In this document: positions 2,242 to 61,298 of the stretch, one piece after another
How the letters are laid out: every line of letters starts with the position of its first letter
Numbering within the stretch: position 1 is the stretch's first letter
Assembly: GCF_054482525.1 (NCBI RefSeq)
Contig: NZ_CM137006.1
Direction: 5' to 3' (one strand)
Length of the DNA stretch: 64,000 nucleotides
Program-made: the position numbers and the translations under genes
Notes under the pieces: generated by a model
Seen by the model: only the letters and a program-made list of their open reading frames with translations
What the model was told of the DNA's origin: nothing
Database searches by the model: none

Positions 2242-2244
2242 TTT

Positions 2245-2290: not shown

Positions 2291-2711
2291 AACGCCGATC
2301 GAGAGAAATTGCCCCCGGCCCGGTAATTGCCAACAGCAGGAATGCGCCAGCGATACTGACATTCTTCCAGAAATTAATCATATTTGGCCCAATCGCATCG
2401 CCGGTCATATCCCAGTAATGGTGACCAATTACCGCTGTACCCAGCGTGTAGAAAATAAACAGCACCGCCAGCGGACGGGTGAAAAAGCCAAGCACGATTA
2501 ATATTGCGGCGGGCACTTCCATAACTACCGCAATAATCGCTGCCAGCATTGGCATTGGCGCGCCCAGCGAGGCCATATATTGGACCGTACCGTCAAAGCC
2601 CATCATTTTGGGAAAACCAAAAATAATGAAAATCAAGACCACGGCGATACGGGCAATTAATAACAAAACGGGGCGTGCAGCACCAAAATCAAAATAACGT
2701 AGTGAGTTCAT
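2289..2711 (-). CDS. yphA: DoxX-family inner membrane protein
   Basis: ORF 2289..2756; likely start at MNSLRYF; multi-pass hydrophobic sequence. Confidence 0.7.
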
Positions 2712-11811: not shown

Positions 11812-12615
11812 TTAACGCTTCAGGGCGTCGCTTAACTCGTCACGCATGTTCGCCAGCATGGCTTTAACAACGCGCGGGTTACCAGCAACGATGTTACCGG
11901 TCAGCATGTAGTTATGACCACCGGTGAAGTCGCTGACGATGCCGCCCGCTTCACGAACCAGCAGCTCGCCTGCGGCGAAATCCCACGGACGCAGACCGAT
12001 TTCAAAGAAACCGTCAACGCGACCCGCAGCAACGTAAGCCAGATCCAGCGCCGCAGAACCGGTACGACGGAAGTCAGCGCATTCGTTGAACAGTTTGCCG
12101 ACGATGTTGATGTAGGTGGTGGCGTACTGTTTTGCTTTGAACGGGAAGCCGGTCGCCAGAATAGTACCGTCGAGATCGCGAGCGGTGCTGCCGCGCAGAC
12201 GGTAGCCGTTCAGCTGTGCGCCCTGACCGCGAGTGGCGGTGAACAGTTCGTTACGCATAGGATCGTAAACCACAGCAACTTCAGTGCGGCCTTTGATACG
12301 AACGGCGATAGATACCGCGAAGTGCGGCAGACGTTTGATAAAGTTGGTAGTGCCATCCAGTGGATCGATAACCCATTGAACATCCTGATCAGTACCTTCA
12401 AGTTCACCGCTTTCTTCGGTGATGATGGTGTGCTGTGGGTAAGATTTACGAATCGTGTCGATAATCACCGCTTCGGCAGCTTTATCTACGTTGGTCACGA
12501 AGTCGTTACTGCCTTTCTGGCTCGCTTCTACAGCGTCCGGGGTTTCATAGTTTTTGGCAATTAAATTACCCGCCTTGCGCGCTGCGCGCACGGCGATGTT
12601 CAGCATCGGATGCAT
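11812..12615 (-). CDS. suhB: Inositol monophosphatase
   Basis: 267 aa; IMPase motifs DPLDGT and WDFAAG. Confidence 0.9.
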   Translation of the reverse strand: MHPMLNIAVRAARKAGNLIAKNYETPDAVEASQKGSNDFVTNVDKAAEAVIIDTIRKSYPQHTIITEESGELEGTDQDVQWVIDPLDGTTNFIKRLPHFAVSIAVRIKGRTEVAVVYDPMRNELFTATRGQGAQLNGYRLRGSTARDLDGTILATGFPFKAKQYATTYINIVGKLFNECADFRRTGSAALDLAYVAAGRVDGFFEIGLRPWDFAAGELLVREAGGIVSDFTGGHNYMLTGNIVAGNPRVVKAMLANMRDELSDALKR

Positions 12616-19468: not shown

Positions 19469-19712
19469 TTTCCGCGTCATGCTTCACGCCGCAGATGCGT
19501 TGGCTGCGCTCGTTCACCCCAGTCACATAGTTATCTATGCTCCTGGGGCTTCACTCACTTGCCGCGTGATTCGGCCTTTTGGCCTCACCCCTCCGGGGCC
19601 AGCGCAAGCGCTGTTCAAAACGCAATGCGTTTTGTCCTGCAACGCGAATCATTTAGCGGAAAAATCCTGGGGCTGCCAACTGGCGGCCCTTTTACAAAGA
19701 AGGATAACTAGA

Positions 19713-20996
19713 ATGACAGAAGCGATGAAGATTACCCTCTCTACCCAACCTGCCGACGCGCGCTGGGGAGAAAAAGCGACTTACAGCATTAATAATGATG
19801 GCATTACCCTGCATTTGAACGGGACAGACGATCTGGGGCTGATCCAGCGTGCGGCGCGCAAGATTGACGGTCTGGGCATCAAGCATGTTCAGTTAAGCGG
19901 TGAAGACTGGGATGCGGATCGCTGCTGGGCATTCTGGCAAGGTTACAAAGCCCCGAAAGGCACACGTAAAGTGGAGTGGCCGGATCTGGACGATGCCCAG
20001 CGCCAGGAACTGGATAACCGCCTGATGATCATCGACTGGGTGCGTGACACCATTAACGCACCGGCGGAAGAGTTGGGGCCATCGCAACTGGCACAGCGTG
20101 CTGTTGATCTGATCAGCAACGTCGCAGGCGATCGTGTGACTTATCGGATCACCAAAGGTGAAGATCTGCGTGATCAAGGTTATATGGGGCTGCACACGGT
20201 CGGGCGCGGTTCAGAACGTTCCCCGGTATTGCTGGCGCTGGATTACAACCCAACAGGCGATAAAGAAGCGCCAGTGTACGCGTGCCTGGTTGGTAAAGGC
20301 ATCACCTTTGATTCCGGCGGCTACAGTATCAAACAGACCGCATTTATGGACTCGATGAAGTCGGACATGGGCGGCGCGGCAACGGTTACCGGAGCGCTGG
20401 CGTTTGCCATTACGCGCGGACTGAACAAGCGCGTGAAGCTGTTCCTCTGCTGTGCGGATAACCTGATCAGCGGCAACGCGTTCAAACTGGGCGATATTAT
20501 TACCTATCGCAACGGTAAAAAAGTTGAAGTGATGAACACTGATGCGGAAGGGCGTCTGGTGCTGGCCGATGGCCTGATTGATGCCAGTGCGCAGAAACCG
20601 GAACTGATCATTGATGCGGCGACCCTCACCGGGGCGGCGAAAACTGCGCTGGGTAATGATTATCACGCGCTGTTCAGTTTTGACGATGCGCTTGCCGGTC
20701 GCTTGCTGGCGAGTGCCGCGCAGGAGAATGAACCGTTCTGGCGTCTGCCGCTGGCGGAGTTCCACCGCAGCCAGCTGCCGTCTAACTTTGCCGAACTGAA
20801 CAATACCGGAAGCGCGGCGTACCCGGCAGGTGCGAGCACGGCGGCGGGCTTCCTGTCGCACTTTGTTGAGAACTATCAGCAAGGCTGGCTGCATATCGAC
20901 TGCTCGGCGACTTACCGTAAAGCGCCGGTTGAACAGTGGTCTGCGGGTGCTACGGGACTTGGTGTGCGCACGATTGCTAATCTGTTAACGGCGTAA
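19713..20996 (+). CDS. pepB: Peptidase B (M17 leucyl aminopeptidase family)
   Basis: ORF 19452..20996; start at MTEAMKITL (427 aa); M17 motif NTDAEGRL. Confidence 0.85.
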
Positions 20997-33167: not shown

Positions 33168-34181
33168 ATGAATACTGAAGCCACGCACGACCAAAATGAA
33201 GCACTTACTACCGGCGCTCGCCTGCGTAATGCTCGCGAACAACTAGGACTTAGTCAGCAGGCCGTTGCCGAGCGACTTTGCCTGAAGGTTTCCACGGTAC
33301 GCGACATTGAAGAAGATAAGGCACCCGCCGATCTTGCTTCAACATTCCTGCGCGGATATATCCGCTCTTATGCGCGTCTGGTACATATTCCAGAAGAAGA
33401 ACTGCTGCCAGGGCTGGAAAAGCAGGCTCCACTACGGGCTGCAAAAGTTGCGCCGATGCAGAGTTTTTCCCTTGGTAAACGCCGCAAAAAACGTGACGGC
33501 TGGCTGATGACCTTCACCTGGCTGGTGTTGTTTGTGGTTATCGGCCTGAGCGGTGCCTGGTGGTGGCAAGACCACAAAGCTCAGCAGGAAGAGATCACCA
33601 CTATGGCCGATCAATCTTCGGCGGAATTGAGCAGTAATAGCGAGCAGGGGCAGAGTGTTCCGTTAAATACGTCGACAACTACAGACCCGGCTACAACGTC
33701 CACGCCGCCAGCGTCTGTGGATACTACCGCAACCAACACGCAAACACCTGCCGTAACTGCGCCAGCACCAGCTGTTGATCCGCAACAGAATGCGGTTGTT
33801 TCGCCTTCGCAGGCAAATGTTGATACCGCCGCGACCCCGGCACCAACGGCAACAACAACGCCAGATGGTGCTGCGCCGTTGCCAACCGATCAGGCTGGCG
33901 TGACCACGCCGGTGGCTGATCCGAATGCGCTGGTGATGAACTTTACTGCCGATTGCTGGCTGGAGGTCACTGATGCTACCGGTAAAAAATTGTTTAGCGG
34001 TATGCAGCGTAAAGACGGTAATTTGAACTTAACCGGCCAGGCACCGTACAAACTGAAAATTGGTGCGCCAGCCGCAGTACAGATCCAGTATCAAGGGAAA
34101 CCTGTCGATCTGAGTCGTTTTATCAGAACTAACCAGGTTGCGCGTCTGACCCTCAATGCCGAACAATCACCGGCGCAGTAA
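33168..34181 (+). CDS. rodZ: Cytoskeleton protein RodZ
   Basis: 337 aa; N-terminal XRE HTH, single TM helix, Pro/Thr-rich linker. Confidence 0.85.
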
Positions 34182-34207
34182 CAGACGGGTAACGCGGGAG
34201 ATTTTTC

Positions 34208-35326
34208 ATGCATAACCAGGCTCCAATTCAACGTAGAAAATCAACACGTATTTACGTTGGGAATGTGCCGATTGGCGATGGTGCTCCCATCGCCGTACAG
34301 TCCATGACCAATACGCGCACGACAGACGTCGAAGCAACGGTCAATCAAATCAAGGCGTTGGAACGTGTTGGCGCTGATATCGTCCGTGTCTCCGTACCGA
34401 CGATGGACGCGGCAGAAGCGTTCAAACTCATCAAACAGCAGGTTAACGTGCCGCTGGTGGCTGACATCCATTTCGACTATCGCATTGCGCTGAAAGTAGC
34501 GGAATACGGCGTCGATTGTCTGCGTATTAACCCTGGCAATATCGGTAATGAAGAGCGTATTCGCATGGTGGTTGACTGTGCGCGCGATAAAAACATTCCG
34601 ATCCGTATTGGCGTTAACGCCGGATCGCTGGAAAAAGATCTGCAAGAAAAGTATGGCGAACCGACGCCGCAGGCATTGCTGGAATCCGCCATGCGCCATG
34701 TTGATCATCTTGATCGCCTGAACTTCGATCAGTTCAAAGTCAGCGTGAAAGCGTCAGACGTCTTCCTCGCTGTTGAGTCTTATCGTTTGCTGGCAAAACA
34801 GATCGATCAGCCGCTGCATCTGGGGATCACCGAAGCGGGTGGCGCGCGCAGCGGGGCGGTTAAATCCGCCATTGGTTTAGGTCTGCTGCTGTCTGAAGGC
34901 ATCGGCGACACGCTGCGCGTATCGCTGGCGGCCGATCCGGTTGAAGAGATCAAAGTCGGTTTCGATATTTTGAAATCGCTGCGTATCCGTTCGCGAGGGA
35001 TCAACTTCATCGCCTGCCCGACCTGTTCGCGTCAGGAATTTGATGTTATCGGTACGGTTAACGCGCTGGAGCAACGCCTGGAAGATATCATCACTCCGAT
35101 GGACGTTTCGATTATCGGCTGCGTGGTGAATGGCCCAGGTGAGGCGCTGGTTTCTACACTCGGCGTCACCGGCGGCAACAAGAAAAGCGGCCTCTATGAA
35201 GATGGCGTGCGCAAAGACCGTCTGGACAACAACGATATGATCGACCAGCTGGAAGCACGCATTCGTGCGAAAGCCAGTCAGCTGGACGAAGCGCGTCGAA
35301 TTGACGTTCAGCAGGTTGAAAAATAA
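34208..35326 (+). CDS. ispG: 4-hydroxy-3-methylbut-2-enyl diphosphate synthase
   Basis: 372 aa; Cys ligands CPTCSR…GCVVNGPGE. Confidence 0.9.
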
Positions 35327-41849: not shown

Positions 41850-41940
41850 CATTTTTTGCAAAAAGGGGTAGATGCAATCGGTTACGCTCTGTATAATGCC
41901 GCGGCAATATTTATTAACCACTCTGGTCGAGATATTGCCC
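41850..41940 (+). promoter_or_regulatory. guaBA promoter region
   Basis: tataat -10 hexamer at 41892-41897, AT-rich upstream; the -35 is weak. Confidence 0.4.
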
Positions 41941-43407
41941 ATGCTACGTATCGCTAAAGAAGCTCTGACGTTTGACGACGTTCTCCTCGTTCCTGCTCAT
42001 TCTACCGTTCTGCCGAATACTGCTGACCTCAGCACCCAGCTGACGAAAACTATTCGTCTGAATATCCCTATGCTTTCCGCAGCAATGGATACCGTAACGG
42101 AAGCGCGCCTGGCTATTGCTCTGGCTCAGGAAGGCGGTATCGGCTTTATCCACAAAAACATGTCCATTGAACGCCAGGCAGAAGAAGTTCGCCGTGTGAA
42201 AAAACACGAATCTGGCGTGGTAACTGATCCGCAGACTGTTCTGCCAACCACGACGCTGCGCGAAGTGAAAGAACTGACCGAGCGTAACGGTTTTGCGGGC
42301 TATCCGGTCGTTACCGAAGAAAACGAACTGGTGGGTATTATCACCGGTCGTGACGTACGTTTTGTTACCGACCTGAGCCAGCCGGTTAGCGTTTACATGA
42401 CGCCGAAAGAACGTCTGGTCACCGTGCGTGAAGGTGAAGCCCGTGAAGTTGTGCTGGCAAAAATGCACGAAAAACGCGTTGAAAAAGCGCTGGTGGTTGA
42501 TGACGAATTCCACCTGATCGGCATGATCACCGTCAAAGACTTCCAGAAAGCGGAACGTAAACCGAACGCCTGTAAAGACGAGCAAGGCCGTCTGCGTGTT
42601 GGTGCAGCGGTTGGCGCGGGTGCGGGTAACGAAGAGCGTGTTGACGCGCTGGTTGCCGCAGGCGTTGACGTTCTGCTGATCGACTCCTCTCACGGTCACT
42701 CAGAAGGCGTTCTGCAACGTATCCGTGAAACCCGTGCTAAATATCCTGATCTGCAAATCATCGGCGGCAACGTGGCAACAGCTGCAGGTGCACGCGCTCT
42801 GGCAGAAGCTGGTTGCAGCGCGGTTAAAGTCGGTATCGGCCCAGGCTCTATCTGTACGACTCGTATCGTGACTGGCGTCGGTGTTCCACAGATCACCGCC
42901 GTTGCTGATGCAGTAGAAGCCCTGGAAGGCACCGGTATTCCGGTTATCGCTGACGGCGGTATCCGTTTCTCAGGCGATATCGCCAAAGCTATCGCCGCAG
43001 GCGCAAGCGCGGTGATGGTGGGTTCCATGCTGGCGGGTACTGAAGAATCTCCGGGTGAAATCGAACTCTACCAGGGCCGTTCTTACAAATCTTACCGTGG
43101 GATGGGCTCTCTGGGTGCGATGTCCAAAGGTTCTTCTGACCGTTACTTCCAGAGTGACAACGCTGCCGACAAACTGGTGCCGGAAGGTATCGAAGGTCGC
43201 GTGGCCTATAAAGGTCGCCTGAAAGAGATCATTCACCAGCAGATGGGCGGCCTGCGCTCCTGTATGGGCCTGACCGGCTGTGGTACTATCGACGAACTGC
43301 GTACTAAAGCGGAGTTTGTACGTATCAGCGGTGCGGGCATTCAGGAAAGCCACGTTCACGACGTGACCATTACTAAAGAGTCCCCGAACTACCGTCTGGG
43401 CTCCTGA
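41941..43407 (+). CDS. guaB: IMP dehydrogenase
   Basis: ORF 41872..43407; start at [14 protein letters not shown] (488 aa); CBS pair and catalytic [11 protein letters not shown] loop. Confidence 0.95.
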
Positions 43408-43475: not shown

Positions 43476-45053
43476 ATGACGGAAAACATTCATAAGCATC
43501 GCATCCTCATTCTGGACTTCGGTTCTCAGTACACTCAACTGGTTGCGCGCCGCGTGCGTGAACTGGGTGTTTACTGCGAACTGTGGGCGTGGGATGTGAC
43601 AGAAGCACAAATTCGTGACTTCAACCCAAGCGGCATTATTCTTTCCGGCGGCCCGGAAAGCACCACCGAAGAAAACAGCCCGCGCGCGCCGCAGTATGTC
43701 TTTGAAGCAGGCGTACCGGTATTCGGCGTTTGCTATGGCATGCAGACCATGGCAATGCAGTTGGGCGGTCACGTTGAAGCCTCTAACGAACGTGAATTTG
43801 GCTACGCGCAGGTTGAAGTCGTAAACGACAGCGCACTGGTTCGCGGTATCGAAGATGCGCTGACCGCAGACGGTAAACCGCTGCTCGATGTCTGGATGAG
43901 CCACGGCGATAAAGTTACCGCTATCCCGTCCGACTTCGTCACCGTAGCCAGCACCGAAAGCTGCCCGTTTGCCATTATGGCTAACGAAGAAAAACGCTTC
44001 TATGGCGTACAGTTCCACCCGGAAGTGACTCACACCCGCCAGGGTATGCGCATGCTGGAGCGTTTTGTGCGTGATATCTGCCAGTGTGAAGCCCTGTGGA
44101 CGCCAGCGAAAATTATCGACGATGCTGTAGCTCGCATCCGCGAGCAGGTAGGCGACGATAAAGTCATCCTCGGCCTCTCTGGTGGTGTGGATTCCTCCGT
44201 AACCGCAATGCTGCTGCACCGCGCTATCGGTAAAAACCTGACTTGCGTATTCGTCGACAACGGCCTGCTGCGTCTCAACGAAGCAGAGCAGGTTCTGGAT
44301 ATGTTTGGCGATCACTTTGGTCTGAACATTGTTCACGTTCCGGCAGAAGCTCGCTTCCTGTCAGCGTTGGCCGGCGAAAACGATCCGGAAGCAAAACGTA
44401 AAATCATCGGGCGCGTTTTCGTTGAAGTATTCGATGAAGAAGCACTGAAACTGGAAGACGTGAAGTGGCTGGCGCAGGGCACTATCTACCCTGACGTTAT
44501 TGAATCTGCCGCATCTGCAACCGGTAAAGCACACGTCATCAAATCTCACCACAACGTGGGCGGCCTGCCGAAAGAGATGAAGATGGGGCTGGTTGAACCG
44601 CTGAAAGAGCTGTTCAAAGACGAAGTGCGTAAGATTGGTCTGGAGCTGGGCCTGCCGTACGACATGCTGTACCGTCACCCGTTCCCGGGACCAGGCCTCG
44701 GCGTTCGTGTACTGGGCGAAGTGAAGAAAGAGTACTGCGACCTGCTGCGCCGTGCTGACGCCATCTTCATTGAAGAACTGCGTAAAGCGGACCTGTACGA
44801 CAAAGTCAGCCAGGCATTCACCGTCTTCCTGCCGGTACGTTCCGTTGGCGTAATGGGCGATGGTCGTAAGTATGACTGGGTTGTCTCTCTGCGTGCTGTC
44901 GAAACCATCGACTTTATGACCGCACACTGGGCGCACCTGCCGTATGACTTCCTCGGTCGCGTTTCCAACCGCATTATCAATGAAGTGAACGGTATTTCCC
45001 GCGTGGTGTATGACATCAGCGGCAAGCCACCAGCGACTATTGAGTGGGAATGA
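43476..45053 (+). CDS. guaA: GMP synthase (glutamine-hydrolysing)
   Basis: 525 aa; GATase active site CYGMQ; ATP-PPase SGGVDSS; C-terminus …KPPATIEWE appears intact. Confidence 0.95.
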
Positions 45054-45099
45054 TTAACAGCTAACTCATAGCAACTCATTTCTATTCAGATATTAACTC

Positions 45100-45245: not shown

Positions 45246-46496
45246 GTGCTTACCGATACAAAATTAAAAAACCTCAAGCCGCAGGACAAACTGTACAAGG
45301 TCTCCGATCGTGACGGGCTGTATGTAGCTGTGCTTACGTCAGGCACGGTCTCGTTTCGCTATGACTACCGTATCAACGGTCGTCGCGAAACACTGGTAAT
45401 CGGGCAGTATGGGCGTGACGGTATCAGCCTGGCAGAAGCGCGAGAAGAACTGATTGCTGCAAAGAAGCTGCTTAAAGCAGGCCAGTCGCCGGCTGCGGCT
45501 AAACGTGACGGTATCAAAAAGATTCGTGGTGCCGAGACGTTTGCGGTACATACCGACAGTTATATGAAACACGTCATCCTGGCTGACAGTACCCGCGCAA
45601 TGAAGCAGGCGGTGATTGACCGTGACATACTTCCGGTTCTTGGTAACAAAATGATGGCTGAAATTACCACATCGATGGTTCGTGATTTGTGTGACCGGAT
45701 TGTCGAACGCGGTGGTCGGGCAACAGCAGTACAGGCCAGGGAGATCATCAGCAGCGTATACCGTCACGCCAATGACCGTGGTCATGGTTTGTTTAATCCT
45801 GCGGCTGACATTAAACCTTCGTCTATCGCCATATTTAAACCACGAGAGCGAACACTGACACCAGAAGAAATTGGCCTGTTCTTCCGCACGCTGGATGCCA
45901 TTGGTGCTATGGGCACTATGAAAATGGCTTTAAAGCTGGTGCTTATCACTATGGTTCGTAAAGGCGAATTCACCAACGCAACGTGGGATGAAATAGATTT
46001 TAAAAAATGGACATGGACAATTCCTTCAGACCGCATGAAGGGAAGCCGGGCGCACGTTATTTACCTGCCTAAACAGGCTCAGGATATATTGGTCGGGTTG
46101 CAGATGTGCGCTGGTGGAAGTGAATATCTGGTTCCTGGTCGTTACAATTTCCGGAAGCCATTATCTAATGCCGCGCTGAACTCTCTGATCGACAGAACGG
46201 TGAAAATAATAAATGAAGATGGTGAGCATATTCAGGGCTTCACCGTACACGATATGCGCCGTACAGCCAGTACGTTGTTGCATGAGGCTGGTTATCCTTC
46301 AGACTGGATTGAAAAGGCTCTGGCACATGAGCAGAAAGGTGTGCGCGCCGTATATAACAAAGCGGAATACGCCAGACAGCGCGCCTACATGTTGCAGCAG
46401 TGGGCCGATATGATTGATTCCTGGATTAACGGGGAGCATACGGATCTGATTCCGTTCTCCCCGTCGAAGTTTGAGAAGTGGATGGCGGGGGAATAA
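45246..46496 (+). CDS. int: Phage tyrosine integrase (P4/CP4-57-like, N-terminal arm-binding domain)
   Basis: 416 aa; C-terminal catalytic region with HDMRRTASTLL and conserved R/H/Y context; first gene after guaA. Confidence 0.9.
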   Translation: MLTDTKLKNLKPQDKLYKVSDRDGLYVAVLTSGTVSFRYDYRINGRRETLVIGQYGRDGISLAEAREELIAAKKLLKAGQSPAAAKRDGIKKIRGAETFAVHTDSYMKHVILADSTRAMKQAVIDRDILPVLGNKMMAEITTSMVRDLCDRIVERGGRATAVQAREIISSVYRHANDRGHGLFNPAADIKPSSIAIFKPRERTLTPEEIGLFFRTLDAIGAMGTMKMALKLVLITMVRKGEFTNATWDEIDFKKWTWTIPSDRMKGSRAHVIYLPKQAQDILVGLQMCAGGSEYLVPGRYNFRKPLSNAALNSLIDRTVKIINEDGEHIQGFTVHDMRRTASTLLHEAGYPSDWIEKALAHEQKGVRAVYNKAEYARQRAYMLQQWADMIDSWINGEHTDLIPFSPSKFEKWMAGE

Positions 46497-46499
46497 CGT

Positions 46500-46694
46500 T
46501 TAATAGTTCTGCTGATTTTCTTCCATCTCTGCTTCTGCTGCCAGTGATTCAATTTTGTTTTCGAATATTGCTGACAGTGTTGCAAATTCAGCATCAGTGA
46601 CAGCGGGAATTGGAACAAACCTGATCCCGCTGTGTGCAAGCATGTTTGCAGTTTCAAGGCATTTTCTTAAATCTGCTGGTGATGCCCTGTTCAT
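46500..46694 (-). CDS. Hypothetical small phage protein (start uncertain)
   Basis: ORF 46500..46814 overlaps methyltransferase 3' end in another frame; internal Met at 46694 would abut the methyltransferase stop. Confidence 0.3.
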   Translation of the reverse strand: MNRASPADLRKCLETANMLAHSGIRFVPIPAVTDAEFATLSAIFENKIESLAAEAEMEENQQNY

Positions 46695-47353
46695 GCAGCA
46701 CGCTCCCGCCCCTGGTTGTCTGTTGGTGACATCGGAGAATTGCTGAATGCATTTGTTAATCCGCCAATATCCAACGCGTATCCTGGGTGTAGTTGCACTG
46801 CCGGGCCTTCGCACTGGTTACCCCAAACATCGAAGCCATGAGACGTCTGGCGGGCGAACAGTTCAATGCGAGAAACATCGCCTAACAATTGCACAAGTTT
46901 TTCACGAACGACATCTGGTTTTCTTGAATGCTCAAGCCGCGGTGCGGTAAATGACTGAACGATACCTGCATTAATGCGCGGAGGTAGTTTTCCCTTTACT
47001 GCAAACAGGCAATCTTCACTATTGGCGCGAGTCATGTGTCCCATACCCATAACCAGTTTATCTGGTTGTCGACTACCACATTTTATCCACGTGAAGCCCT
47101 TCATGGTCATCAGACGGAATCCCCAGGCTTCAACAACTTTTAGTGCTTCGAGTGGTTGTGTTGGCACCCACCACATGGCCAACAGACAGTTTTCATCGGC
47201 CAAATCCCACACAGGAAGGCGGCAGATATCCAGCACACTCATAACAGGATATTTAAAACCGGCACCGCGATTACCATCTGCGGCTTTGTCCCGGTATACC
47301 CAGGGTGGATCTGCATAGATTAGTGTGTATTTCTTAGTCATAAACCACCCCAC
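46691..47353 (-). CDS. MT-A70 family DNA N6-adenine methyltransferase (orphan, phage-encoded)
   Basis: DPPW catalytic motif (LIYADPPWVY); no adjacent restriction endonuclease. Confidence 0.8.
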   Translation of the reverse strand: MGWFMTKKYTLIYADPPWVYRDKAADGNRGAGFKYPVMSVLDICRLPVWDLADENCLLAMWWVPTQPLEALKVVEAWGFRLMTMKGFTWIKCGSRQPDKLVMGMGHMTRANSEDCLFAVKGKLPPRINAGIVQSFTAPRLEHSRKPDVVREKLVQLLGDVSRIELFARQTSHGFDVWGNQCEGPAVQLHPGYALDIGGLTNAFSNSPMSPTDNQGRERAA

Positions 47354-47633
47354 AACATCCTATGCCGCTATAGTCGCCACGGCGAAGGCCGTTACCTTTT
47401 GTGATACATTGGTCCCTGCGAACCGCGATCCTTGCACGTTCAACATCACCAGAAGCAACATCCATACACTGAAGCCAAAGGTGAGCGGCAATGCGGAATT
47501 GCCCTTTTTTCTCTCTTTCAATCGCGCGTTTTTCGATCTCTATCGCCGCAGGAGTAACGGCGACAATCTTTGAAGGGCTGCGCATTGAAACCTTGTTCAT
47601 GTGATATTTTTCAAGTCGGCTTAACTTTCTCAC
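47334..47633 (-). CDS. Hypothetical phage protein
   Basis: 99-aa ORF between excisionase and methyltransferase; no recognisable motif. Confidence 0.4.
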   Translation of the reverse strand: MRKLSRLEKYHMNKVSMRSPSKIVAVTPAAIEIEKRAIEREKKGQFRIAAHLWLQCMDVASGDVERARIAVRRDQCITKGNGLRRGDYSGIGCCGVVYD

Positions 47634-47742
47634 TTAATCCAACCCTCTCTGAAAATTAATGCCAGCAGATAAAGCCATGCTGAAACAGAGGCCAGGAATA
47701 AGTACCATCCTGACCATTTGCTCCAGTGCCTTAGCAGCACAC

Positions 47743-47991
47743 TCATGCAGCGTTGCTCACAGGACGATATACACGTTGCTGAACAGGAGGCTTTTTACCC
47801 TGGAACTCTGCCGGGCTTGCTGCCTGACGTTCATCAAGCCAACGCTCAACTTCATCACGGTTCCATGCGCAGCGTTTATCGGTGATATACCAGCGTTTAG
47901 GAAATTCCCCTGCGCGCTCCATACGGTCGATAGTGCTCCATGACAGTGGCACCACCGCCAGGAGTTCCTTCTTACCTAATGCACCTTTCAT
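47743..47991 (-). CDS. AlpA-family excisionase/transcriptional regulator (MerR-like HTH)
   Basis: 82 aa; AlpA-like pattern (…LSWSTIDRMERAGEFPK…WNRDEVERWL). Confidence 0.75.
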   Translation of the reverse strand: MKGALGKKELLAVVPLSWSTIDRMERAGEFPKRWYITDKRCAWNRDEVERWLDERQAASPAEFQGKKPPVQQRVYRPVSNAA

Positions 47992-48040: not shown

Positions 48041-48922
48041 TTACATAGATGTTTCGTTTAATTCTTCCCGACGAACGCTGTAAACGTCGGTGGCTTTTGC
48101 CAGCAGTTCGTCATCATCTGAAAGTTTTTGTGCAATGTATTTGTAAGCCTTATCCAGTTCGGAGACAGTGCTGTAATTCATCGCTGCGCTGGTAAAGGCC
48201 ATCAGCATTTCTTCTGGCTCACGGCTATCCGCTTTACGCGTTTGCTCATCAGGCTTTTTCACTGATTTAGCGTTGATCAGACTGTTCATTCCCGCAGCCG
48301 TAGTCATTTGCGGAGTAATGTCTCGCTCAACGCGCGGTGCCGTTTCCTGTAATTCGTCAGGGGTGTAAACACCGAGAAGTACATCAGGAGCGTGCAGGCG
48401 AGCCCATCGTTTCGTGCAAAGATAGGCAAGTTGCTGGCGCGGATCCTGTTCCCACAATGGAGAGTTACGCACTCCTGCTTGCGCCATACTGATGGTAAGC
48501 TCACGTGGTTCTGCTTCTCCTTTAAGAACTGCTGACACAGTTACCGTCAGATTCGGTGATTTATCTGTTTTGCCGTTAACATTCGACCAGTCACCGCTCC
48601 AGCGATAATTCAGGCGTGTCGCCAGCAGGCTGGAAGAGGATACGACCGCGTTTACCAACTGTGCTTCGTAGCCTAACGTTCCGTTTACCACATGCGTTTT
48701 CTGCGCCACGGCGAAAGGGTTCATTCCCCACTGTGCCGCCTGCATGGTCACCGCCAGGCAATCGGCAGGTTTGCCTTCAAGATGTTTCGGTACAGTCGCT
48801 TTGCTTTGTGACATCAACTCCGCGAAACGCACCAGTTGATTCATGCCCTCGGGGCTGAAGATTGCCGCAGCAGTGCCTACAGTTGCGCCTGGTTGTGATG
48901 TGATTGCGATATCATTGCTCAT
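48041..48922 (-). CDS. Bet/Red-beta family single-strand annealing recombinase
   Basis: 293 aa; alignable by eye to lambda Bet (…ERDITP… and W..P…L…ARL…Y..DE segments). Confidence 0.75.
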   Translation of the reverse strand: MSNDIAITSQPGATVGTAAAIFSPEGMNQLVRFAELMSQSKATVPKHLEGKPADCLAVTMQAAQWGMNPFAVAQKTHVVNGTLGYEAQLVNAVVSSSSLLATRLNYRWSGDWSNVNGKTDKSPNLTVTVSAVLKGEAEPRELTISMAQAGVRNSPLWEQDPRQQLAYLCTKRWARLHAPDVLLGVYTPDELQETAPRVERDITPQMTTAAGMNSLINAKSVKKPDEQTRKADSREPEEMLMAFTSAAMNYSTVSELDKAYKYIAQKLSDDDELLAKATDVYSVRREELNETSM

Positions 48923-49740
48923 ACGTACATATCCTGTTTACGTGCCCAGTCAGGGCGTTTAATAATTTCCACTCCGCCCCATTCATCGTTGATGCGGCAT
49001 TCGTGATAGGTATTCAGATCCCGGCGGAACAGAGCGTGCCCGGCATCGACATCCGGCGCATCCAGCTCGAACACGCGTACCGGATACCGACCACAATCAA
49101 TGCTTTCGCTCACGGCAAGAAAGAAAAAACCATGTGGCTGACCAGTAACCCTCATTGCGCCTTCGCGGTACATTGCGTCCTGCACGTGGTAGCGGAACTC
49201 CTCGATGTGGCGTGCAAAACGGTCCATATCTGTAACCTTTTTCACGTCGACGATCACGTTGTGCTCTTTCAGCCATTTGTCTGGACGAATGCGGCACAAC
49301 TCACCAGTCTCTTCATCGTTCCAGTACATTGATGCTTCGCAGTAACCAGGTGCTTCCAGCATCCAGCGTGCCGCCGGGTGAGCCATTGCGCTATCACGCA
49401 TCAGCTCCAGTTTCCGCCACTGCTCGGCATCAAGTACCGTAATCCCCATATCCGCCACATCACGAAGAAATGCCTCTTCGTCAGCTTTACCTTGTTTCGT
49501 CCGACGATCGAATTTCGGCGAAACAATGAAGCGTTTGTCGAACTCTCCAGGCTCCAGAAGCAGACAGTGCAATGCGGTTCCCATATCCAGTGCAGACTTT
49601 TTCTCTTCGTCTTCTGGTGCTGCCTGAACCCATTTAAGAAGCGCCGGATTCTTGGCAACCATGTCCAGTTGCGACTTACTCACGCCGTCCCCGGCGTGGT
49701 AGTCTTCGTTGCTGATGTCGAAATAAATTCCCGGCTTCAT
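48919..49740 (-). CDS. RecE-like / exodeoxyribonuclease VIII-family PD-(D/E)XK exonuclease
   Basis: 273 aa; N-terminus YHAG…SKSQLD typical of prophage exodeoxyribonuclease VIII-like proteins; translationally coupled to Bet gene. Confidence 0.7.
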   Translation of the reverse strand: MKPGIYFDISNEDYHAGDGVSKSQLDMVAKNPALLKWVQAAPEDEEKKSALDMGTALHCLLLEPGEFDKRFIVSPKFDRRTKQGKADEEAFLRDVADMGITVLDAEQWRKLELMRDSAMAHPAARWMLEAPGYCEASMYWNDEETGELCRIRPDKWLKEHNVIVDVKKVTDMDRFARHIEEFRYHVQDAMYREGAMRVTGQPHGFFFLAVSESIDCGRYPVRVFELDAPDVDAGHALFRRDLNTYHECRINDEWGGVEIIKRPDWARKQDMYV

Positions 49741-50051
49741 GCCGCGTCCCTCTGCCCATCAAGCTGATCAGCCAGATCCCAGCGGGCGATAATTGCCATT
49801 GCCTCGCGCCGGTAGGAATCCATCAGTTCTTCGAACTCAGGGCTGTCTTTAGCTGCTTCCAGCACTTCCTGGCGAACTCCTTTGCCTGTTACAACGTCGA
49901 AAGTTGAGGCCAGTTGATGAAGCCGGATGCTCTCAATCAGTTCAACTTGTCGGTCATATAGCTGTTCTGACAGGCGGTAGTCCTTGTCGAATGCCAGCAT
50001 GATTTTTTGAAGATTTTTCTGCTGATTAACGTTCATTATCAGCCCTCCCAT
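49737..50051 (-). CDS. Hypothetical early-left operon protein (Gam/Kil position)
   Basis: 104-aa ORF (likely start MNVNQQ at 50036) directly upstream of exo. Confidence 0.45.
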   Translation of the reverse strand: MGGLIMNVNQQKNLQKIMLAFDKDYRLSEQLYDRQVELIESIRLHQLASTFDVVTGKGVRQEVLEAAKDSPEFEELMDSYRREAMAIIARWDLADQLDGQRDAA

Positions 50052-50190
50052 ATCTCGTTATCGTTGGCCACATCGCGAGCTTCTTTGCTGACGAAAGCCC
50101 ACTTAATACCTTCCTGTAAGGTGCGGAACTTCCAGCTCATGAATCCGCATGCAGTAACGCAGTACCAACCGTTGATGATTTTCCACTGCA
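50041..50190 (-). CDS. Small protein, possibly CIII-like
   Basis: 49-aa ORF MQWKIINGWYCVTACGF… with GAGG RBS; weak resemblance to lambda CIII N-terminus (MQYAIAGWPVAGC); not in ORF track (under 60 aa). Confidence 0.35.
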
Positions 50191-50297
50191 TAACTTGTTA
50201 CCTCGGTTTGTTACCGTTGAGGTAATGATTATGCGTATTTGGTTTGGTGTCAATAGATATGAGTTAAAAAAATTACCCACAAGGTAATCTTGCTGGC

Positions 50298-50325
50298 AAT
50301 AAAAAAGCCGCCATGAGGCGGCTTA
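50298..50325 (-). terminator. Rho-independent terminator after repressor gene
   Basis: On minus strand: aagccgcctcatggcggctt hairpin followed by ttttttatt. Confidence 0.65.
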
Positions 50326-50344
50326 CTTGCTGAAAACTATAGTT

Positions 50345-50929
50345 TTATTGTTTGCTTTTTTCGTTCTGGTTGATGACAAATTCAATGTAACTTTCGATCT
50401 TTGCTTTCTCGGTTTCGGGTAACAATGCGTAGCGCGAGCGGTCATAGTTGATAGTCGCAGGGTCGTGCGGGTGAATCAGTAATTCATAGCCGTGACGCCC
50501 GAATGCGGATGCAACATTCTCCAGGGTGGAAATGGAAACGCTGACCTCATTGTTTAACAGGCGGCTGATTGTCACCTGGGCGACGCCGGATGCGCGGTGA
50601 AGTTTTCCCTGTGTTGAAAGGTCGCGGCTTTCGCTCATCCAGCGTTCCAGGTTGTGAGCCGCCAGCTGACCAATGTCGCTTGGGCCGACAGGCTGAAAAC
50701 CTTCCTGAGAAAGCGAGCGATCGATATCAAGCCAGTTACGGGGTTTATTGGCGGCAGCTTCAATTTTTCGCGCAACCTGGTCGCCGATAACCTTCTTACC
50801 AAGAGCCCAGCGGTTTACCAGATTTGCCTGAGTTCCAAGTTTTTCTGCCATCCGCGTCTGAACACCATTGAATTCACGGTCGATCAAGTCGTTGAGATTT
50901 TGCCTGCGGACGTCCTGGATACTTTTCAT
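50345..50929 (-). CDS. CI-like prophage repressor with two HTH segments, no S24 peptidase domain
   Basis: 194 aa; HTH-like segments (TRMAEKLGTQANLVNRW and GVAQVTISRLLNNE); divergent from Cro-like gene; no Ala-Gly/Ser-Lys autocleavage motifs seen. Confidence 0.7.
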   Translation of the reverse strand: MKSIQDVRRQNLNDLIDREFNGVQTRMAEKLGTQANLVNRWALGKKVIGDQVARKIEAAANKPRNWLDIDRSLSQEGFQPVGPSDIGQLAAHNLERWMSESRDLSTQGKLHRASGVAQVTISRLLNNEVSVSISTLENVASAFGRHGYELLIHPHDPATINYDRSRYALLPETEKAKIESYIEFVINQNEKSKQ

Positions 50930-51083
50930 TTTCTGGAAAATCGCCTCATATATGAATCAGTAGATGATTCAATTTAAAGCAATATTACCCAACAGGTAAA
51001 TGCACCCCATAGGTAACTATCCTTGATTTTTGTTACCTTATGGGTGAATATTTATTATCTGAAATAAATATCAGGCAATAGCT
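50930..51083. promoter_or_regulatory. Immunity-region divergent promoter/operator (PRM/PR equivalent)
   Basis: Contains TTACCCAACAGGTAA (50985-50999) and near-copy TTACCTTATGGGTGA (51033-51047). Confidence 0.7.
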
Positions 51084-51314
51084 ATGAGCGATAACGGACA
51101 TTTCGATTTCAAAAAGCACTGGCTTGCACTTACTCCGGATGAGCGTGAAGCCTTCGCACAGGAAGCCGGAACGACGAGTCACTATATACAGACTCACTTA
51201 ACAGGTAAGCGCAAAATGCCAGGTAAGGTATTGATGAATGGGCTTTTTAAAGCCTGTAAAACAAGACAATGGCTGCGCTCAAAAGCAGAACTGGCATACT
51301 TCTTCTACTCATGA
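51084..51314 (+). CDS. Cro/CII-like HTH regulator
   Basis: 76-aa ORF divergent from repressor, followed by terminator. Confidence 0.55.
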   Translation: MSDNGHFDFKKHWLALTPDEREAFAQEAGTTSHYIQTHLTGKRKMPGKVLMNGLFKACKTRQWLRSKAELAYFFYS

Positions 51315-51336
51315 TATCCAGCCACAACCCTCTGTA

Positions 51337-51360
51337 GACCGCCACCCGGCGGTCTTTTCA
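51337..51360 (+). terminator. Rho-independent terminator (tR1-like) after cro-like gene
   Basis: gaccgccacccggcggtc hairpin followed by ttttca. Confidence 0.6.
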
Positions 51361-51462
51361 TATCTATTCGTACCTCAAAGGTAATAAAAAACCAAATCTG
51401 GTTGATCAAATTTTCCAATTGTGCAAAATAGCCAATATCAATAACAAAAAGGGGCGGAAAAA

Positions 51463-51675
51463 TTGAAGATAGTAACCAGAATGGAGGCCGCAAAAGCCGG
51501 GTTAAATCGCTATTTCACAGGAAAGCGGTGCCGTCACGGCCATCTCTCTGAAAGGTATGTTCTGAACGGAACATGTGTTGAATGTGCAATGAATAGCGCC
51601 AACCGCCATCGTAATGAATTTGCTTGTGCACTAAAGAGTGCAAGAGGGGAAACCTATGGCAAGCAGCTGGATTAA
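51463..51675 (+). CDS. Small Cys/His-rich (zinc-binding?) phage protein
   Basis: 70 aa; C-x-H-G-H…C-x2-C pattern; 3' end overlaps O-like gene. Confidence 0.45.
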   Translation: MKIVTRMEAAKAGLNRYFTGKRCRHGHLSERYVLNGTCVECAMNSANRHRNEFACALKSARGETYGKQLD

Positions 51676-53234: not shown

Positions 53235-53351
53235 TACCAGCGCGATAGCGCATTTTTTTACGCCTACATGATTACCTGTTGGGTAATAAAATGTTCTAAT
53301 CTCTATTGATTTCATGTCTTATGTGGTTTTTAATTACCTAAGGGGTAAATC

Positions 53352-57971: not shown

Positions 57972-58014
57972 GCATGGTACTATTACCACAACGGTAACTA
58001 TTACCACGGTGGTT

Positions 58015-58611
58015 ATGATGCCTGCTGAACCTAAAACCTATAAACGCAAATCAACGCAATTTAAGCCACTAACAGCAATGCAGGAGGCTTATTGCCAGTC
58101 ATACATCAAAACGCCTGAAAACCAGACTCAGGCAGCGATTAACGCAGGATTCTCCCCAAATACAGCGGCAGTTAAAGCCAGTGTCATGATGCGCGATGAA
58201 CGCATTCAGAAACGGATTGCCGAGTTGATGGAGGAGCGCAACAAACGAATGCGCGTCAGTGCTGATTACGTTCTCATGCGCCTGGTGGAGATCGACCAGA
58301 TGGACGTTATCGACATCCTCAACGACGATGGGAGCCTTAAACCAATCCGTGAGTGGCCGAAAATCTGGCGCACTACGCTTAGTGGCTTTGATCTGTCATC
58401 GACCATCATGAACATGAACGAGGATTCGATAGAGACAATCCTCAAAAAAATTAAATGGCCTGACAAGGTGAAGAACCTTGAGCTGATTGGTAAGCATGTT
58501 GATGTCAATGCGTTCAAAGAACGTCTGGATGTTAATGTGAATGTGACAATTGCTGATCGCATAGCGGCAGCCAGGAAGAGACTGAAAGAACGTCAGGATG
58601 GCAATCAGTGA
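58015..58611 (+). CDS. Terminase small subunit
   Basis: ORF 57937..58611; start placed after terminator at MMPAEPK; sequence resembles small-terminase proteins; directly precedes large subunit. Confidence 0.7.
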   Translation: MMPAEPKTYKRKSTQFKPLTAMQEAYCQSYIKTPENQTQAAINAGFSPNTAAVKASVMMRDERIQKRIAELMEERNKRMRVSADYVLMRLVEIDQMDVIDILNDDGSLKPIREWPKIWRTTLSGFDLSSTIMNMNEDSIETILKKIKWPDKVKNLELIGKHVDVNAFKERLDVNVNVTIADRIAAARKRLKERQDGNQ

Positions 58612-60173: not shown

Positions 60174-60596
60174 CTAGAAAATAATTTCATCAAATGCAGC
60201 ATTTATTGCCTTTGCTTCGCTAATGGCGCCTTGTTTATCGACAATAGCTTTTTTACCAAGCACCTCGGCAAGGCACTGTAGCTTCATGTTGTATAAGTGT
60301 TCGCTCATGTAATCATTATCACTTTTTGCTTTAGCGCAAACAGAGCGAGAAATATCAAACACATCGCCTTTTTCCATTTCAGAACGTTGTGCTGTTATCC
60401 AGTCATGGAACGTAACGCTAGTACCATGGTCTTCGCTAAGAGTTAACCCGGTCAGTCCCTCACTCTGAATTACTTCGTAATGCATTTCATTACCAGCAAA
60501 AACGCCATAAAAAACGCAGTCTTCAGCCTGAACGATACGAGAATATTTTAATGGCCATTCATTTAGATACTTAGCCAACATATCAATTGTTTTCAT
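60174..60596 (-). CDS. Hypothetical 140-aa protein (reverse-oriented moron)
   Basis: Opposite strand to flanking terminase and portal genes; no recognisable motif; own terminator. Confidence 0.55.
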   Translation of the reverse strand: MKTIDMLAKYLNEWPLKYSRIVQAEDCVFYGVFAGNEMHYEVIQSEGLTGLTLSEDHGTSVTFHDWITAQRSEMEKGDVFDISRSVCAKAKSDNDYMSEHLYNMKLQCLAEVLGKKAIVDKQGAISEAKAINAAFDEIIF

Positions 60597-60794
60597 GATC
60601 TCACCTTAAAAAAATGCCCGGCGAACCGGGCGAACTGGAAGCAATGAGTTATGCCTTCCGTGGCTGTACGGGTTTACAGCATGAAGTCATCGCAATGGCG
60701 TCCTGCTGTAAAAAGGGCGGTGATAGTCCTTCAAGGGAAACCATCACCGCCAAGCACCTGGAACTTCTGGCATCACGGTCCTTAGGCGTGATTC

Positions 60795-60871
60795 TGGCGC
60801 GGCATGCAGGATTCGAACCTGCGACCAACCGCTTAGAAGGCGGTTGCTCTGTCCAACTGAGCTAATGCCAC
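60795..60871 (-). tRNA. tRNA-Arg (anticodon UCU), phage-encoded
   Basis: Hand-folded cloverleaf: acceptor GUGGCAU/AUGCCGC, D-arm GCUCAGUUGGACAGAGC, anticodon stem ACCGC/GCGGU with loop CUUCUAA, T-arm CGCAGGUUCGAAUCCUGC, 3' GCCA encoded. Confidence 0.85.
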
Positions 60872-61298
60872 AACGCTGAGAGCACTTAGCCTGTTAAGGC
60901 GCCACACTTTGTCGCGGCTCCATAAATGCTCTCATCGTTGTACCCTCGTCTCTTCCGAGGTGTCACACCGAATCGCCGGGATGGTGAATCCCCGTGCGCG
61001 GAATAAAACCGCTCGACTTGCACATTCCGGCTACCTGGTTCGTTTGCCCGAGCAAGGGAGGGTGCCCCTTAAACGTATCCAGACCGCTATCGGCGCATGT
61101 GCCATACGCCGTACTGCTCAAAATAAAAGCTCACCCCACCTGTTCAATTTAACGACAAGCCAGTCAGATTAGTAACTGGAGTGAATTCTTTGGTTACCTG
61201 AAAGGTAATAATTCGTGCGTTAAATGTCAACTGTCTACGATAAATAAATCATATGTGGTTAAATTGGTAATAATTTAATTGCGTACGGAGTCATTGAT
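60872..61298. promoter_or_regulatory. ~430-bp non-coding region upstream of portal; likely promoters for tRNA/moron (leftward) and portal operon (rightward)
   Basis: No credible ORF; contains TTACCTGAAAGGTAA at 61204-61218 and AT-rich -10-like sequences. Confidence 0.45.

Follow-up and report, generated by a model that had tools for sequence, protein, structure and literature searches.

The immunity region of a phiV10-like Escherichia coli prophage is very probably an SPC32H-type Rep switch, and its first leftward gene is not a CIII homologue

A closely comparable described system is the Rep/Ant antirepression switch of the Salmonella podophage SPC32H, which is reportedly the subject of Kim & Ryu 2013 (J Virol), Kim et al. 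2016 (PNAS) and the PDB entries 5D50 and 5D4Z. The first of these entries bears the title 'Rep-Ant complex from Salmonella-temperate phage'. According to later papers that summarise this work, the DNA-bound form of Rep is a tetramer, which Ant, itself tetrameric, separates into dimers (PMC9638917, citing Kim 2016), SPC32H Rep has the architecture DBD-MDD-CAD (PMC9986798, citing Kim et al. 2016), and the antirepressor is produced once LexA is cleaved (PMC7380047, citing Kim & Ryu 2013). Salmonella prophage antirepressors have also been described as homologous to 186 Tum (PMC7380047). In the Gifsy-type and 186 Tum-type systems (Lemire et al. 2011, PMC3121763; Shearwin et al. 1998), SOS signals reach the switch by way of an antirepressor gene that LexA represses and that lies apart from the immunity region, and the logic of a non-cleavable repressor is common to them and to the locus described here. 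What the locus has in common with the S24 repressors of the lambda CI/LexA type is a divergent switch of the pL/pR kind with a lysogeny repressor, several palindromic operators and, on the opposite side, a cro-like gene; in contrast, its repressor has no S24 domain with a Ser-Lys dyad and no cleavage site, and Rep-type oligomerisation, unlike that of lambda CI, is attributed in the relevant section of PMC9986798 to a p53-like tetramerisation element. Closer still is phage ZX5, in which overexpression of the repressor abolishes free phage and overexpression of the antirepressor lowers lysogeny (PMC9782041), although the 'anti-repressor' tested in that study was a BRO-N protein (ORF4) and differs from the small Ant under LexA control. 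Finally, a DNA-damaging microcin induces Uetakevirus prophages of the phiV10 type 21- to 47-fold (bioRxiv 10.64898/2026.05.26.727859).

The window that we analysed, that is, the whole 64-kb stretch of DNA, contains 45 kb of E. coli chromosome and 18.9 kb of a phiV10/epsilon15-like Uetakevirus prophage, which is integrated at the 3′ end of guaA and extends beyond base 64000. The attL core lies at 45039-45055 and the integrase gene at 45246-46496. The prophage segment is 97-100% identical to phiV10, TL-2011b, ZX5 and HEMP4, HEMP4 being the closest complete phage (99.6% identity over 84% of the window's prophage part), and its immunity region is present in 561 of 5426 complete E. coli genomes (~10%). 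In our reading, the interval is very probably the immunity (lysis-lysogeny) switch of this prophage, with a repressor of the SPC32H Rep type, induction driven by Ant and a small leftward ORF that is not CIII.

The lysogeny repressor gene, rep, occupies 50345..50929 on the minus strand, starts with ATG and encodes 194 aa. The protein differs by one residue (99.5% identity) from the repressor of phiV10 (PhiV10p40) and vB_EcoP_ZX5 (ORF21), phages with which the prophage also shares the locus and the guaA attachment site, so that there is essentially no difference between them in this respect. As the preliminary description had proposed, the ORF encodes two HTH-like segments and no S24 domain: Pfam places an HTH_3 domain at aa 106-147, which passes the cut-off (E=1.2e-9), and gives a weaker match to a Cro/YdaS-type HTH at aa 21-61, which does not (E=3e-4). 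A phmmer search of the PDB aligned aa 1-190 of Rep with residues 2-197 of 5D50_A (E=3.5e-42), and aa 89-190 also match 5D4Z_A. By tblastn against SPC32H rep, 99% of the query aligns at 42.7% identity, and the alignment spans all three domains, with 54%, 34% and 47% identity. On the basis of this alignment, and with domain names taken from section 3.3 of PMC9986798 (citing Kim et al. 2016), the approximate domains would be a DNA-binding HTH (aa 1-70), a variable linker (aa 71-88), a middle dimerisation domain of HTH_3 fold (aa 89-152) and a C-terminal tetramerisation/Ant-binding domain (aa 153-190). The AlphaFold model of Rep, whose confidence is low for the linker and for some of the C-terminal domain, is all-helical, with two helical bundles followed by a C-terminal helix; used as a Foldseek query, it gave strong PDB matches only to SPC32H Rep (5D50/5D4Z), followed by HTH-only proteins. 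Judged from its sequence, Rep is thus an SPC32H-type repressor and belongs to an already characterised family. It resembles SPC32H Rep in full-length homology (43%), size (194 vs 198 aa), three-domain layout and lack of S24. Nevertheless, because identity to the crystallised protein is just 43%, we only infer the oligomeric state of the present Rep and its docking by Ant.

The DNA around rep carries the predicted elements of a divergent switch. A rho-independent terminator of the rep transcript was found by terminator scan at 50297..50324 on the minus strand, with a stem-loop at 50305-50324 followed by a T-run, and the phiV10 annotation has a terminator at the equivalent site. Downstream of it lies pL, a predicted sigma-70-like promoter on the minus strand (50225..50253), whose -35 box TTGACA (50253-50248) is separated by a 17-nt spacer from a -10 box AATCAT ending at 50225; the promoter scan gave 10/12 consensus matches, and pL is conserved in the aligned relatives. 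Two predicted operators bracket it, both perfect matches to TTACC-N5-GGTAA: OL2, TTACCCACAAGGTAA, at 50273..50287, upstream of the -35 box, and OL1, TTACCGTTGAGGTAA, at 50211..50225, which abuts the -10 box, overlaps the predicted transcription start and keeps its place immediately before the small ORF in every aligned relative. The 62 bp that separate OL1 and OL2 are also found in phiV10, HEMP4 and SPC32H. On the other side of rep, a predicted OR cluster (50985..51047) comprises one perfect site (50985-50999), one with 2 mismatches (51002-51016) and one with 1 mismatch (51033-51047), and overlaps the predicted pR, the -35 box of which begins at 51030 and the -10 box of which ends at 51058. 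The starts of these sites are spaced by 17 and 31 bp, compared with 17 and 30 bp in SPC32H (34390/34407/34437). Rightward transcription would begin with a cro-like gene of 76 aa (51084..51314, plus strand), which belongs to phrog_35 ('transcriptional repressor'), is the first gene of the rightward operon and is followed by a terminator at 51336-51355 (terminator scan). The perfect motif occurs 7 times in the 18.9-kb prophage part and not once in the 45 kb of chromosome, and sites with at most one mismatch number 13 in the whole window, against 1.1 expected. Both the motif and the spacings are common to SPC32H, phiV10 and HEMP4, and the epsilon15 record annotates the equivalent sites as repressor-binding. 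The locus and SPC32H thus have the half-sites TTACC/GGTAA in common and space their OL and OR sites similarly, whereas the operator centres contain G/C here and are A/T-rich in SPC32H, there are two perfect OL sites here instead of three, and the host is E. coli with a different immunity type.

Behind pL, the first gene is a small ORF on the minus strand (50039..50191, stop codon included), whose product is MQWKIINGWYCVTACGFMSWKFRTLQEGIKWAFVSKEARDVANDNEIWEG. The preliminary description had rightly recognised an ORF here, but as one of 49 aa at 50041-50190; the product has 50 aa, and the limits were off by 1-2 bases and one residue. A good ribosome binding site had been noted and is indeed present (GAGG, 9 nt before the ATG), and the position given to the ORF, at the head of the leftward operon, is correct because pL lies downstream of the rep terminator (50305-50324). 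The ORF had also been called unannotated, whereas public records already list the identical protein as hypothetical, namely WP_001198620.1 in RefSeq, PhiV10p39 in phiV10 and gp37 in epsilon15. Its PHROG family is the narrow phrog_898, the profile of which is matched from end to end (residues 1-50 on profile positions 1-50, E=1.9e-38). All of the 36 phage records that carry the small ORF also carry a Rep homologue, and the ORF comes first after rep and pL in phiV10, epsilon15, SPC32H, BUCT711 and most metagenomic and genomic contigs, even in members that are only 42-46% identical; in one contig (L013), a called ORF of 70 aa separates rep from the small ORF. When 1.84 billion representatives were searched with a profile, there were 18 matches, about 16 of them genuine, and P0029 and P0040 were discarded as relatives, being translated tandem-repeat artefacts. 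The small ORF matches no Pfam or NCBIfam family, a profile search of the PDB returned nothing meaningful for it, and its accession numbers were mentioned in no paper found by literature search. The next gene, on the same strand, is a gp36-like ORF (phrog_856; 49737..50036, 99 aa from the ATG at 50036), identified by PHROG match and by the RefSeq annotation of the identical segment, for which no relative was found in PDB, Pfam or NCBIfam. The junction between the two reads TGA-TA-ATG and a GGGAGGG lies within the last codons of the small ORF, an arrangement in which the gp36-like ORF is probably translationally coupled to the small ORF. According to PHROG/Pfam matches, the leftward operon continues with a RecE-like nuclease gene (48919..49740) and then RecT (48041..48922), so the order rep, 49/50-aa ORF, ~100-aa ORF, RecE, RecT is that of SPC32H.

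Is the small ORF a gene at all, and if so, is it a CIII? It might be argued that it is a chance ORF in the pL leader, whose conservation reflects a cis-acting DNA or RNA element or a gene on the opposite strand: it is short, lacks a Pfam or NCBIfam family, has a low-confidence structure model, and the annotation of phage Tyrion calls an opposite-strand ORF at this position. Substitutions, however, are concentrated at the third codon position of its own frame (297 differences, vs 150 and 146 at positions 1 and 2; in close pairs, 17 vs 3-5), synonymous changes outnumber non-synonymous ones (by 8:1 over the first 28 codons in the comparison with the same phage Tyrion), and the length of 49-50 codons, the start codon and the GAGG site persist down to the 42% protein identity of Serratia-type relatives. 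Together with the PHROG match, this pattern makes a chance ORF very unlikely, and by its sequence the small ORF is a genuine conserved protein under purifying selection, found only in phages that have this switch. As for its identity, the preliminary description had seen a weak resemblance to lambda CIII, and it is conceivable that the protein is distantly homologous to CIII or functions like it, as a competitive FtsH inhibitor that would stabilise a lysogeny-promoting factor. The two are small proteins (50 vs 54 aa) of an early leftward operon and have in common a loose N-terminal pattern, MQ...GW..C; the AlphaFold model (19-sequence alignment, pLDDT 54) also has low-confidence helices at aa 25-44. 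But the motif as it had been formulated, MQ-x-x-I-x-GW, fits MQWKIINGW only with a one-residue gap, and neither the N-terminal Cys residues nor the 'GW' are kept in divergent members. All four homology tests were negative, so that the resemblance does not hold and a CIII homologue is rejected: BLASTP of the small ORF against lambda CIII gave no alignment at E<=100; the Pfam model Lambda_CIII (PF02061) gave no match at E<=10; in PHROG (E<=10), CIII goes to phrog_550 and the small ORF to phrog_898 only; and hhalign of the two family alignments returned 0.7% probability over 3 columns. The lambda CIII query was validated by its own match to PF02061 (1.5e-30) and by a 98% match to CIII proteins in the database. 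Moreover, the core helix ESLLERITRKLRxGWKRL, which varies little or not at all among 20 CIII sequences, is not present in the 15-member alignment of the small ORF, and CIII is distal in its operon, unlike the small ORF. Lambda CII is the protein that CIII protects, and a Pfam scan of eight ORFs around the switch turned up no lambda-type CII (Phage_CII). We therefore consider an FtsH inhibitor of the CIII kind highly improbable. A zinc-binding or disulfide motif formed by C11 and C15 was likewise dropped because neither Cys is conserved in the divergent members, in which both are replaced. Returning to the conserved protein that we favour, it may most plausibly be an early factor of the leftward (recombination) operon, accessory in role or directed at the host. 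That it is a small regulator, or an inhibitor of a host factor, and thereby tips the choice between lysis and lysogeny or influences early Uetakevirus development seems unlikely; if true, the small ORF would be a functional counterpart of small lambda pL proteins such as CIII, Kil or Gam, with homology to none of them.

The other point at which the reading could fail is the fate of Rep after DNA damage. Rep could be inactivated by proteolysis, through RecA-stimulated cleavage at a cryptic site or through a metalloprotease of the ImmA/IrrE type, as for ImmR and DdrO; COG2856 proteases sometimes cleave XRE-type HTH repressors without S24, and DdrO, albeit with weak E-values, is among the fold matches of Rep. 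Against this, Peptidase_S24 (PF00717) gave no Pfam match in Rep at E<=0.1 and is found in 0 of 86 Rep homologues, AlphaFold and Foldseek revealed no cryptic S24 fold (the sole LexA entry among the 50 PDB matches listed, 2kpj, aligns over 72 columns, like the HTH-only matches), and no Ala-Gly or Cys-Gly cleavage dipeptide exists anywhere in the 194 aa. All these lines agree with the earlier statement that the repressor lacks a LexA/CI-type autocleavage domain. In addition, no gene for an ImmA/IrrE-type protease adjoins rep or is listed by PGAP for the near-identical EC332 prophage, the crystal structure of the homologous Rep contains Ant as its partner, and close relatives carry ant with a LexA box. 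Proteolytic inactivation is thus very unlikely. Since Rep is without an S24 autocleavage domain, induction would need an antirepressor; this had been anticipated, and is borne out by the full-length homology to SPC32H Rep, the protein crystallised with Ant (5D50), but is no discovery because the mechanism has already been published for this family.

The Ant-driven switch that we favour would operate as follows. By homology, the N-terminal HTH of Rep would read the 15-bp TTACC-N5-GGTAA palindromes, the second HTH-fold domain would be a dimerisation module, and the C-terminal ~40 residues would serve for tetramerisation and as the docking site of the antirepressor. In the lysogen, Rep would sit on OL1 and OL2, 62 bp apart around pL, on the three OR sites over pR and on further sites at the heads of other operons, thereby silencing lytic transcription. 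Rep would be unable to cleave itself. Upon DNA damage, host LexA would be cleaved and leave the SOS box that precedes the small ant gene; the Ant produced (~85 aa) would bind the C-terminal domain of Rep and break the DNA-binding tetramer into dimers, and pL and pR would fire. Tetramer binding, Ant-mediated disassembly and LexA control we infer from the SPC32H and ZX5 literature. The repressor is better labelled an SPC32H/phiV10-type Rep (with a LexA-controlled antirepressor) than 'HTH protein', 'VapI antidote' or 'CI-like'. Beyond correct annotation, the switch matters little as a finding, although knowledge of the Ant route bears on the prediction of how prophages respond to DNA-damaging drugs and bacteriocins.

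Where is ant? Using SPC32H Ant, HEMP4 Ant and the BRO-N fusion as tblastn queries, no homologue was found in the 64-kb window, in contrast to SPC32H, probably because the prophage runs past base 64000; by comparison with HEMP4, ant is expected ~16 kb beyond the right end. Nor does the window contain a credible LexA box. Its single CTGT-N8-ACAG, at 60664, was rejected as a candidate, having a GC-rich centre and no TA flanks and lying just upstream of a terminator hairpin, with 0.83 such matches per window expected by chance. As the window holds neither ant nor a credible LexA box, the antirepressor step for the present prophage rests on its relatives, and the prophage could be truncated or carry a different ant. 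In HEMP4, Ant has 85 aa, is 87% identical to SPC32H Ant and is preceded by a perfect LexA box, CTGTATAAATATACAG, 22 bp upstream of the start codon, a layout alike in SPC32H. Indeed, ant with a perfect SOS box is present in HEMP4, EC332, SPC32H and epsilon15, and the ant region was found in 528 complete E. coli genomes, compared with the 561 that have the immunity region. Relatives of the prophage, unlike SPC32H, carry extra Ant-domain genes, namely the BRO-N fusion and one adjoining int. The small Ant continues to be named 'hypothetical protein' in the E. coli genomes of RefSeq.

The immunity region lies inside a prophage of ~39 kb that starts at the 3′ end of guaA (43476-45053; guaB at 41872-43407), the reported attachment site of phiV10, epsilon15 and vB_EcoP_ZX5 (PMC9782041), with the att core ATTGAGTGGGAATGATT at 45039-45055 and the integrase gene at 45246-46496. 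Only its left ~19 kb, running from the integrase gene into early structural genes, lies in the window. A 1.7-kb stretch around the immunity region is 100% identical to Escherichia phage HEMP4, which matches 84% of the prophage part at 99.6% identity, and 97-98% identical to phiV10, TL-2011b, ZX5 and other Uetakevirus podophages. The region is present in 561 of 5426 complete E. coli genomes.

The repressor, Rep, is encoded at 50345-50929 on the minus strand. As the preliminary description had it, Rep is a 194-aa protein with two HTH-like segments, which Pfam matched as HTH_3 at residues 106-147 (E=1.2e-9) and, more weakly, as a Cro/YdaS-type HTH at residues 21-61, and it lacks an S24 peptidase domain: Peptidase_S24 had no Pfam match in Rep at E<=0.1. 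The AlphaFold model (21 homologues, mean pLDDT 79) is entirely helical, with two helical bundles and a long C-terminal helix. Compared with the PDB by Foldseek, it gave 12 significant matches, all of them chains of Rep from Salmonella phage SPC32H, below which came only HTH proteins (SinR, DdrO, Stl, HigA, C.Esp1396I); among the 50 listed matches, the sole LexA entry (2kpj) aligned over 72 columns, like the other HTH-only matches. Because the S24 domain was found in none of 86 database homologues (193-198 aa), no S24 catalytic domain was among those 50 fold matches and Rep contains neither an Ala-Gly nor a Cys-Gly dipeptide, we see no cryptic S24 fold in this protein.

A PDB sequence search matched Rep over its full length to 5D50 chain A, ‘Repressor’ (residues 1-190, E=3.5e-42), and in part to 5D4Z (residues 89-190); both are SPC32H Rep, 5D50 in complex with the antirepressor Ant. 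By tblastn, Rep is 42.7% identical to SPC32H Rep and 99.5% to the phiV10 and ZX5 repressors; the record of phage BP9 labels its own Rep ‘plasmid maintenance system antidote protein VapI’. SPC32H Rep is described as having an N-terminal DNA-binding domain, a middle dimerisation domain (MDD) and ~40 C-terminal residues (CAD) through which Rep forms tetramers and is bound by the antirepressor (PMC9986798, citing Kim et al. 2016). These roles therefore add a nuance to the two HTH-like segments: by homology, residues 106-147, the stronger Pfam HTH, would be the dimerisation module and the weaker N-terminal HTH the DNA reader. Identity to SPC32H is highest in the N-terminal domain (54%), compared with 34% in the MDD and 47% in the CAD.

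How would such a repressor be removed? Of the earlier proposals, that SOS induction, if any, would probably need an antirepressor or another mechanism, the antirepressor was correct, yet this mechanism is already established for the Rep family: the structures became public in 2016, work on ZX5 appeared in 2022 and the epsilon15 operators are annotated. On DNA, SPC32H Rep is described as a tetramer that tetrameric Ant splits into dimers (PMC9638917), and antirepressor production is described as following LexA self-cleavage (PMC7380047, citing Kim & Ryu 2013). Direct evidence for the E. coli phages themselves comes from ZX5, where free phage disappeared and lysis-gene transcripts fell by >99.9% when the repressor was overexpressed, and where overexpression of an antirepressor lowered lysogeny (PMC9782041), and from phiV10-species prophages, for which 21- to 47-fold induction by a DNA-damaging microcin is reported (bioRxiv 10.64898/2026.05.26.727859).

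In the 64-kb window, tblastn detected no Ant homologue, and no credible LexA box was present. The lone CTGT-N8-ACAG match (60664-60679), located between tRNA-Arg(TCT) (60795-60871) and the terminator hairpin that precedes a phrog_4846 ORF (60174-60596), is GC-rich at its centre, lacks TA flanks and, with 0.83 matches expected, is probably fortuitous. In SPC32H, ant (86 aa) is flanked by the tailspike gene and the last of the injection genes, and CTGTATAAACATACAG lies a short way upstream of it. An 85-aa HEMP4 ORF (34832-35086) is 87% identical to SPC32H Ant (19676-19936) and carries CTGTATAAATATACAG 22 bp upstream of its start codon; its position corresponds to ~16 kb past the window end. The ant region was found in 528 complete E. 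coli genomes, compared with 561 for the immunity region. An antirepressor step is thus very likely in this prophage as well, by analogy with its relatives rather than from the window itself. In RefSeq E. coli genomes this LexA-controlled gene is labelled only ‘hypothetical protein’, despite its characterised SPC32H homologue. The E. coli and Salmonella phage versions of Ant share 87% identity whereas those of Rep share only 43%, and the operator half-sites are the same; Uetakeviruses from different hosts might cross-induce or be partly cross-immune. Three Ant-domain genes are found in close relatives: the 85-aa Ant with its LexA box, a 241-aa BRO-N::Ant-C fusion with 43% identity to Ant in its C-terminal part, and an ‘Ant’ adjoining the integrase. 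Such genes lie at 33803-34528 and 1603-1968 in HEMP4 and at 11870-12580 and 43688-44344 in the EC332 prophage. The integrase-adjacent copy is missing from the window, where int is directly followed (46497-46500) by a phrog_292 ORF (46500-46814).

The 15-bp palindrome TTACC-N5-GGTAA, the putative Rep operator, has seven perfect copies within the 18.9 kb of prophage and none in the 45-kb chromosomal part; allowing one mismatch, the whole window has 13 sites where 1.1 are expected. The leftward promoter pL is a good sigma-70-type promoter (50253-50225; TTGACA, 17-nt spacer, AATCAT) and comes after the rho-independent terminator of the repressor transcript (50305-50324). Putative operator OL1 (50211-50225) directly adjoins the -10 hexamer and covers the predicted start of transcription; OL2 (50273-50287) is placed 62 bp from OL1, on the upstream side of the -35 hexamer. 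Such a pair bracketing pL at about six helical turns would fit a single tetramer engaging two palindromes. Three putative OR sites (50985, 51002, 51033) overlap the rightward promoter pR. SPC32H, phiV10 and HEMP4 share the motif, the 62-bp pairing and a closely similar OR spacing (17/30 bp; 17/31 in the window). The epsilon15 GenBank record already annotates the equivalent elements as repressor-binding sites, including some before terS, before the portal operon and in the ant/tailspike intergenic region. Rep-type operators also head other transcription units (53272-53348, 57983-58015, 61194-61208, 51370-51384): a 62-bp-spaced pair between the P gene and a DUF1064/resolvase-like gene, two sites where terS begins, a single site ahead of the portal operon and another beyond the cro terminator. 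Such a distribution suggests that Rep directly represses most operons, late ones included.

The small ORF said to head the leftward operon is indeed the first behind pL, and has the good ribosome-binding site ascribed to it (GAGG, 9 nt upstream of ATG). It spans 50039-50191 on the minus strand and encodes 50 aa, so that the earlier limits (50041-50190, 49 aa) were 1-2 bases and one residue off. Nor was it unannotated, the identical protein being public as ‘hypothetical protein’ (WP_001198620.1, PhiV10p39, epsilon15 gp37). Its substitution pattern marks it as a real gene: summed over pairs of six orthologues down to 42% identity, differences number 297 at codon position 3 versus 150 and 146 at the others; close pairs show 17 versus 3-5; and the first 28 codons compared with Enterobacter phage Tyrion give a synonymous to non-synonymous ratio of 8:1. 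Start codon, ribosome-binding site and 49-50-codon length are kept in orthologues. In Tyrion the conserved 49-aa ORF (2250-2399, plus strand) itself has no annotation, and GenBank calls over it an opposite-strand ‘gp39’ (2154-2366, minus strand), probably a mis-call given the codon-position pattern.

Could this protein be a CIII-like FtsH inhibitor, as its cysteines and GW had led the preliminary description to propose? Those residues vary in divergent members, and the CIII core helix is absent. BLASTP against lambda CIII returned nothing at E<=100; the Pfam CIII model gave no match at E<=10, compared with 1.5e-30 for lambda CIII itself; the PHROG families differ (898, of unknown function, E=1.9e-38, and 550 for CIII); and hhalign of a 15-member small-ORF alignment with 20 CIII members gave a probability of 0.7%, from three aligned columns (NGW against AGW). 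Of the ORFs around the switch that were scanned, none was recognised as a lambda-type CII. We thus reject the CIII assignment. Where lambda has cII there is a 70-aa phrog_1081 ORF of unknown function (51463-51675, plus strand) with a CxHGH...CxxC zinc-ribbon-like motif and no Pfam or NCBIfam family; it overlaps the start of a DnaT-like replication gene (51638).

This early protein is narrowly distributed. A profile search of 1.84 billion proteins yielded 18 cluster representatives, two of them repeat artefacts, and all 36 phage records carrying the small ORF also have a Rep homologue. In divergent genomic and metagenomic contigs it follows closely on a Rep-type gene of 193-198 aa and, in all contigs but one, is the first gene called after it; more small ORFs and then RecE-like and RecT genes come next. 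Searches of the PDB, NCBIfam and the literature gave no leads, and its predicted structure has a pLDDT of 54. From position, our best guess is that it would serve the leftward recombination operon as an early factor, accessory or host-directed. The stop codon of the small ORF (TGA, 50041-50039) is 2 nt before the ATG (50036) of the next gene, a gp36-like ORF whose ribosome-binding site, GGGAGGG, lies within the last codons of the small ORF, an arrangement that suggests translational coupling. The distal part of the operon (46691-47991, minus strand) encodes an MT-A70 adenine methyltransferase (46691-47353), a PerC-family activator (47334-47633) and an AlpA-type excisionase/regulator (47743-47991), with a 38-aa ORF bearing hydrophobic stretches (47630-47746) between the latter two.
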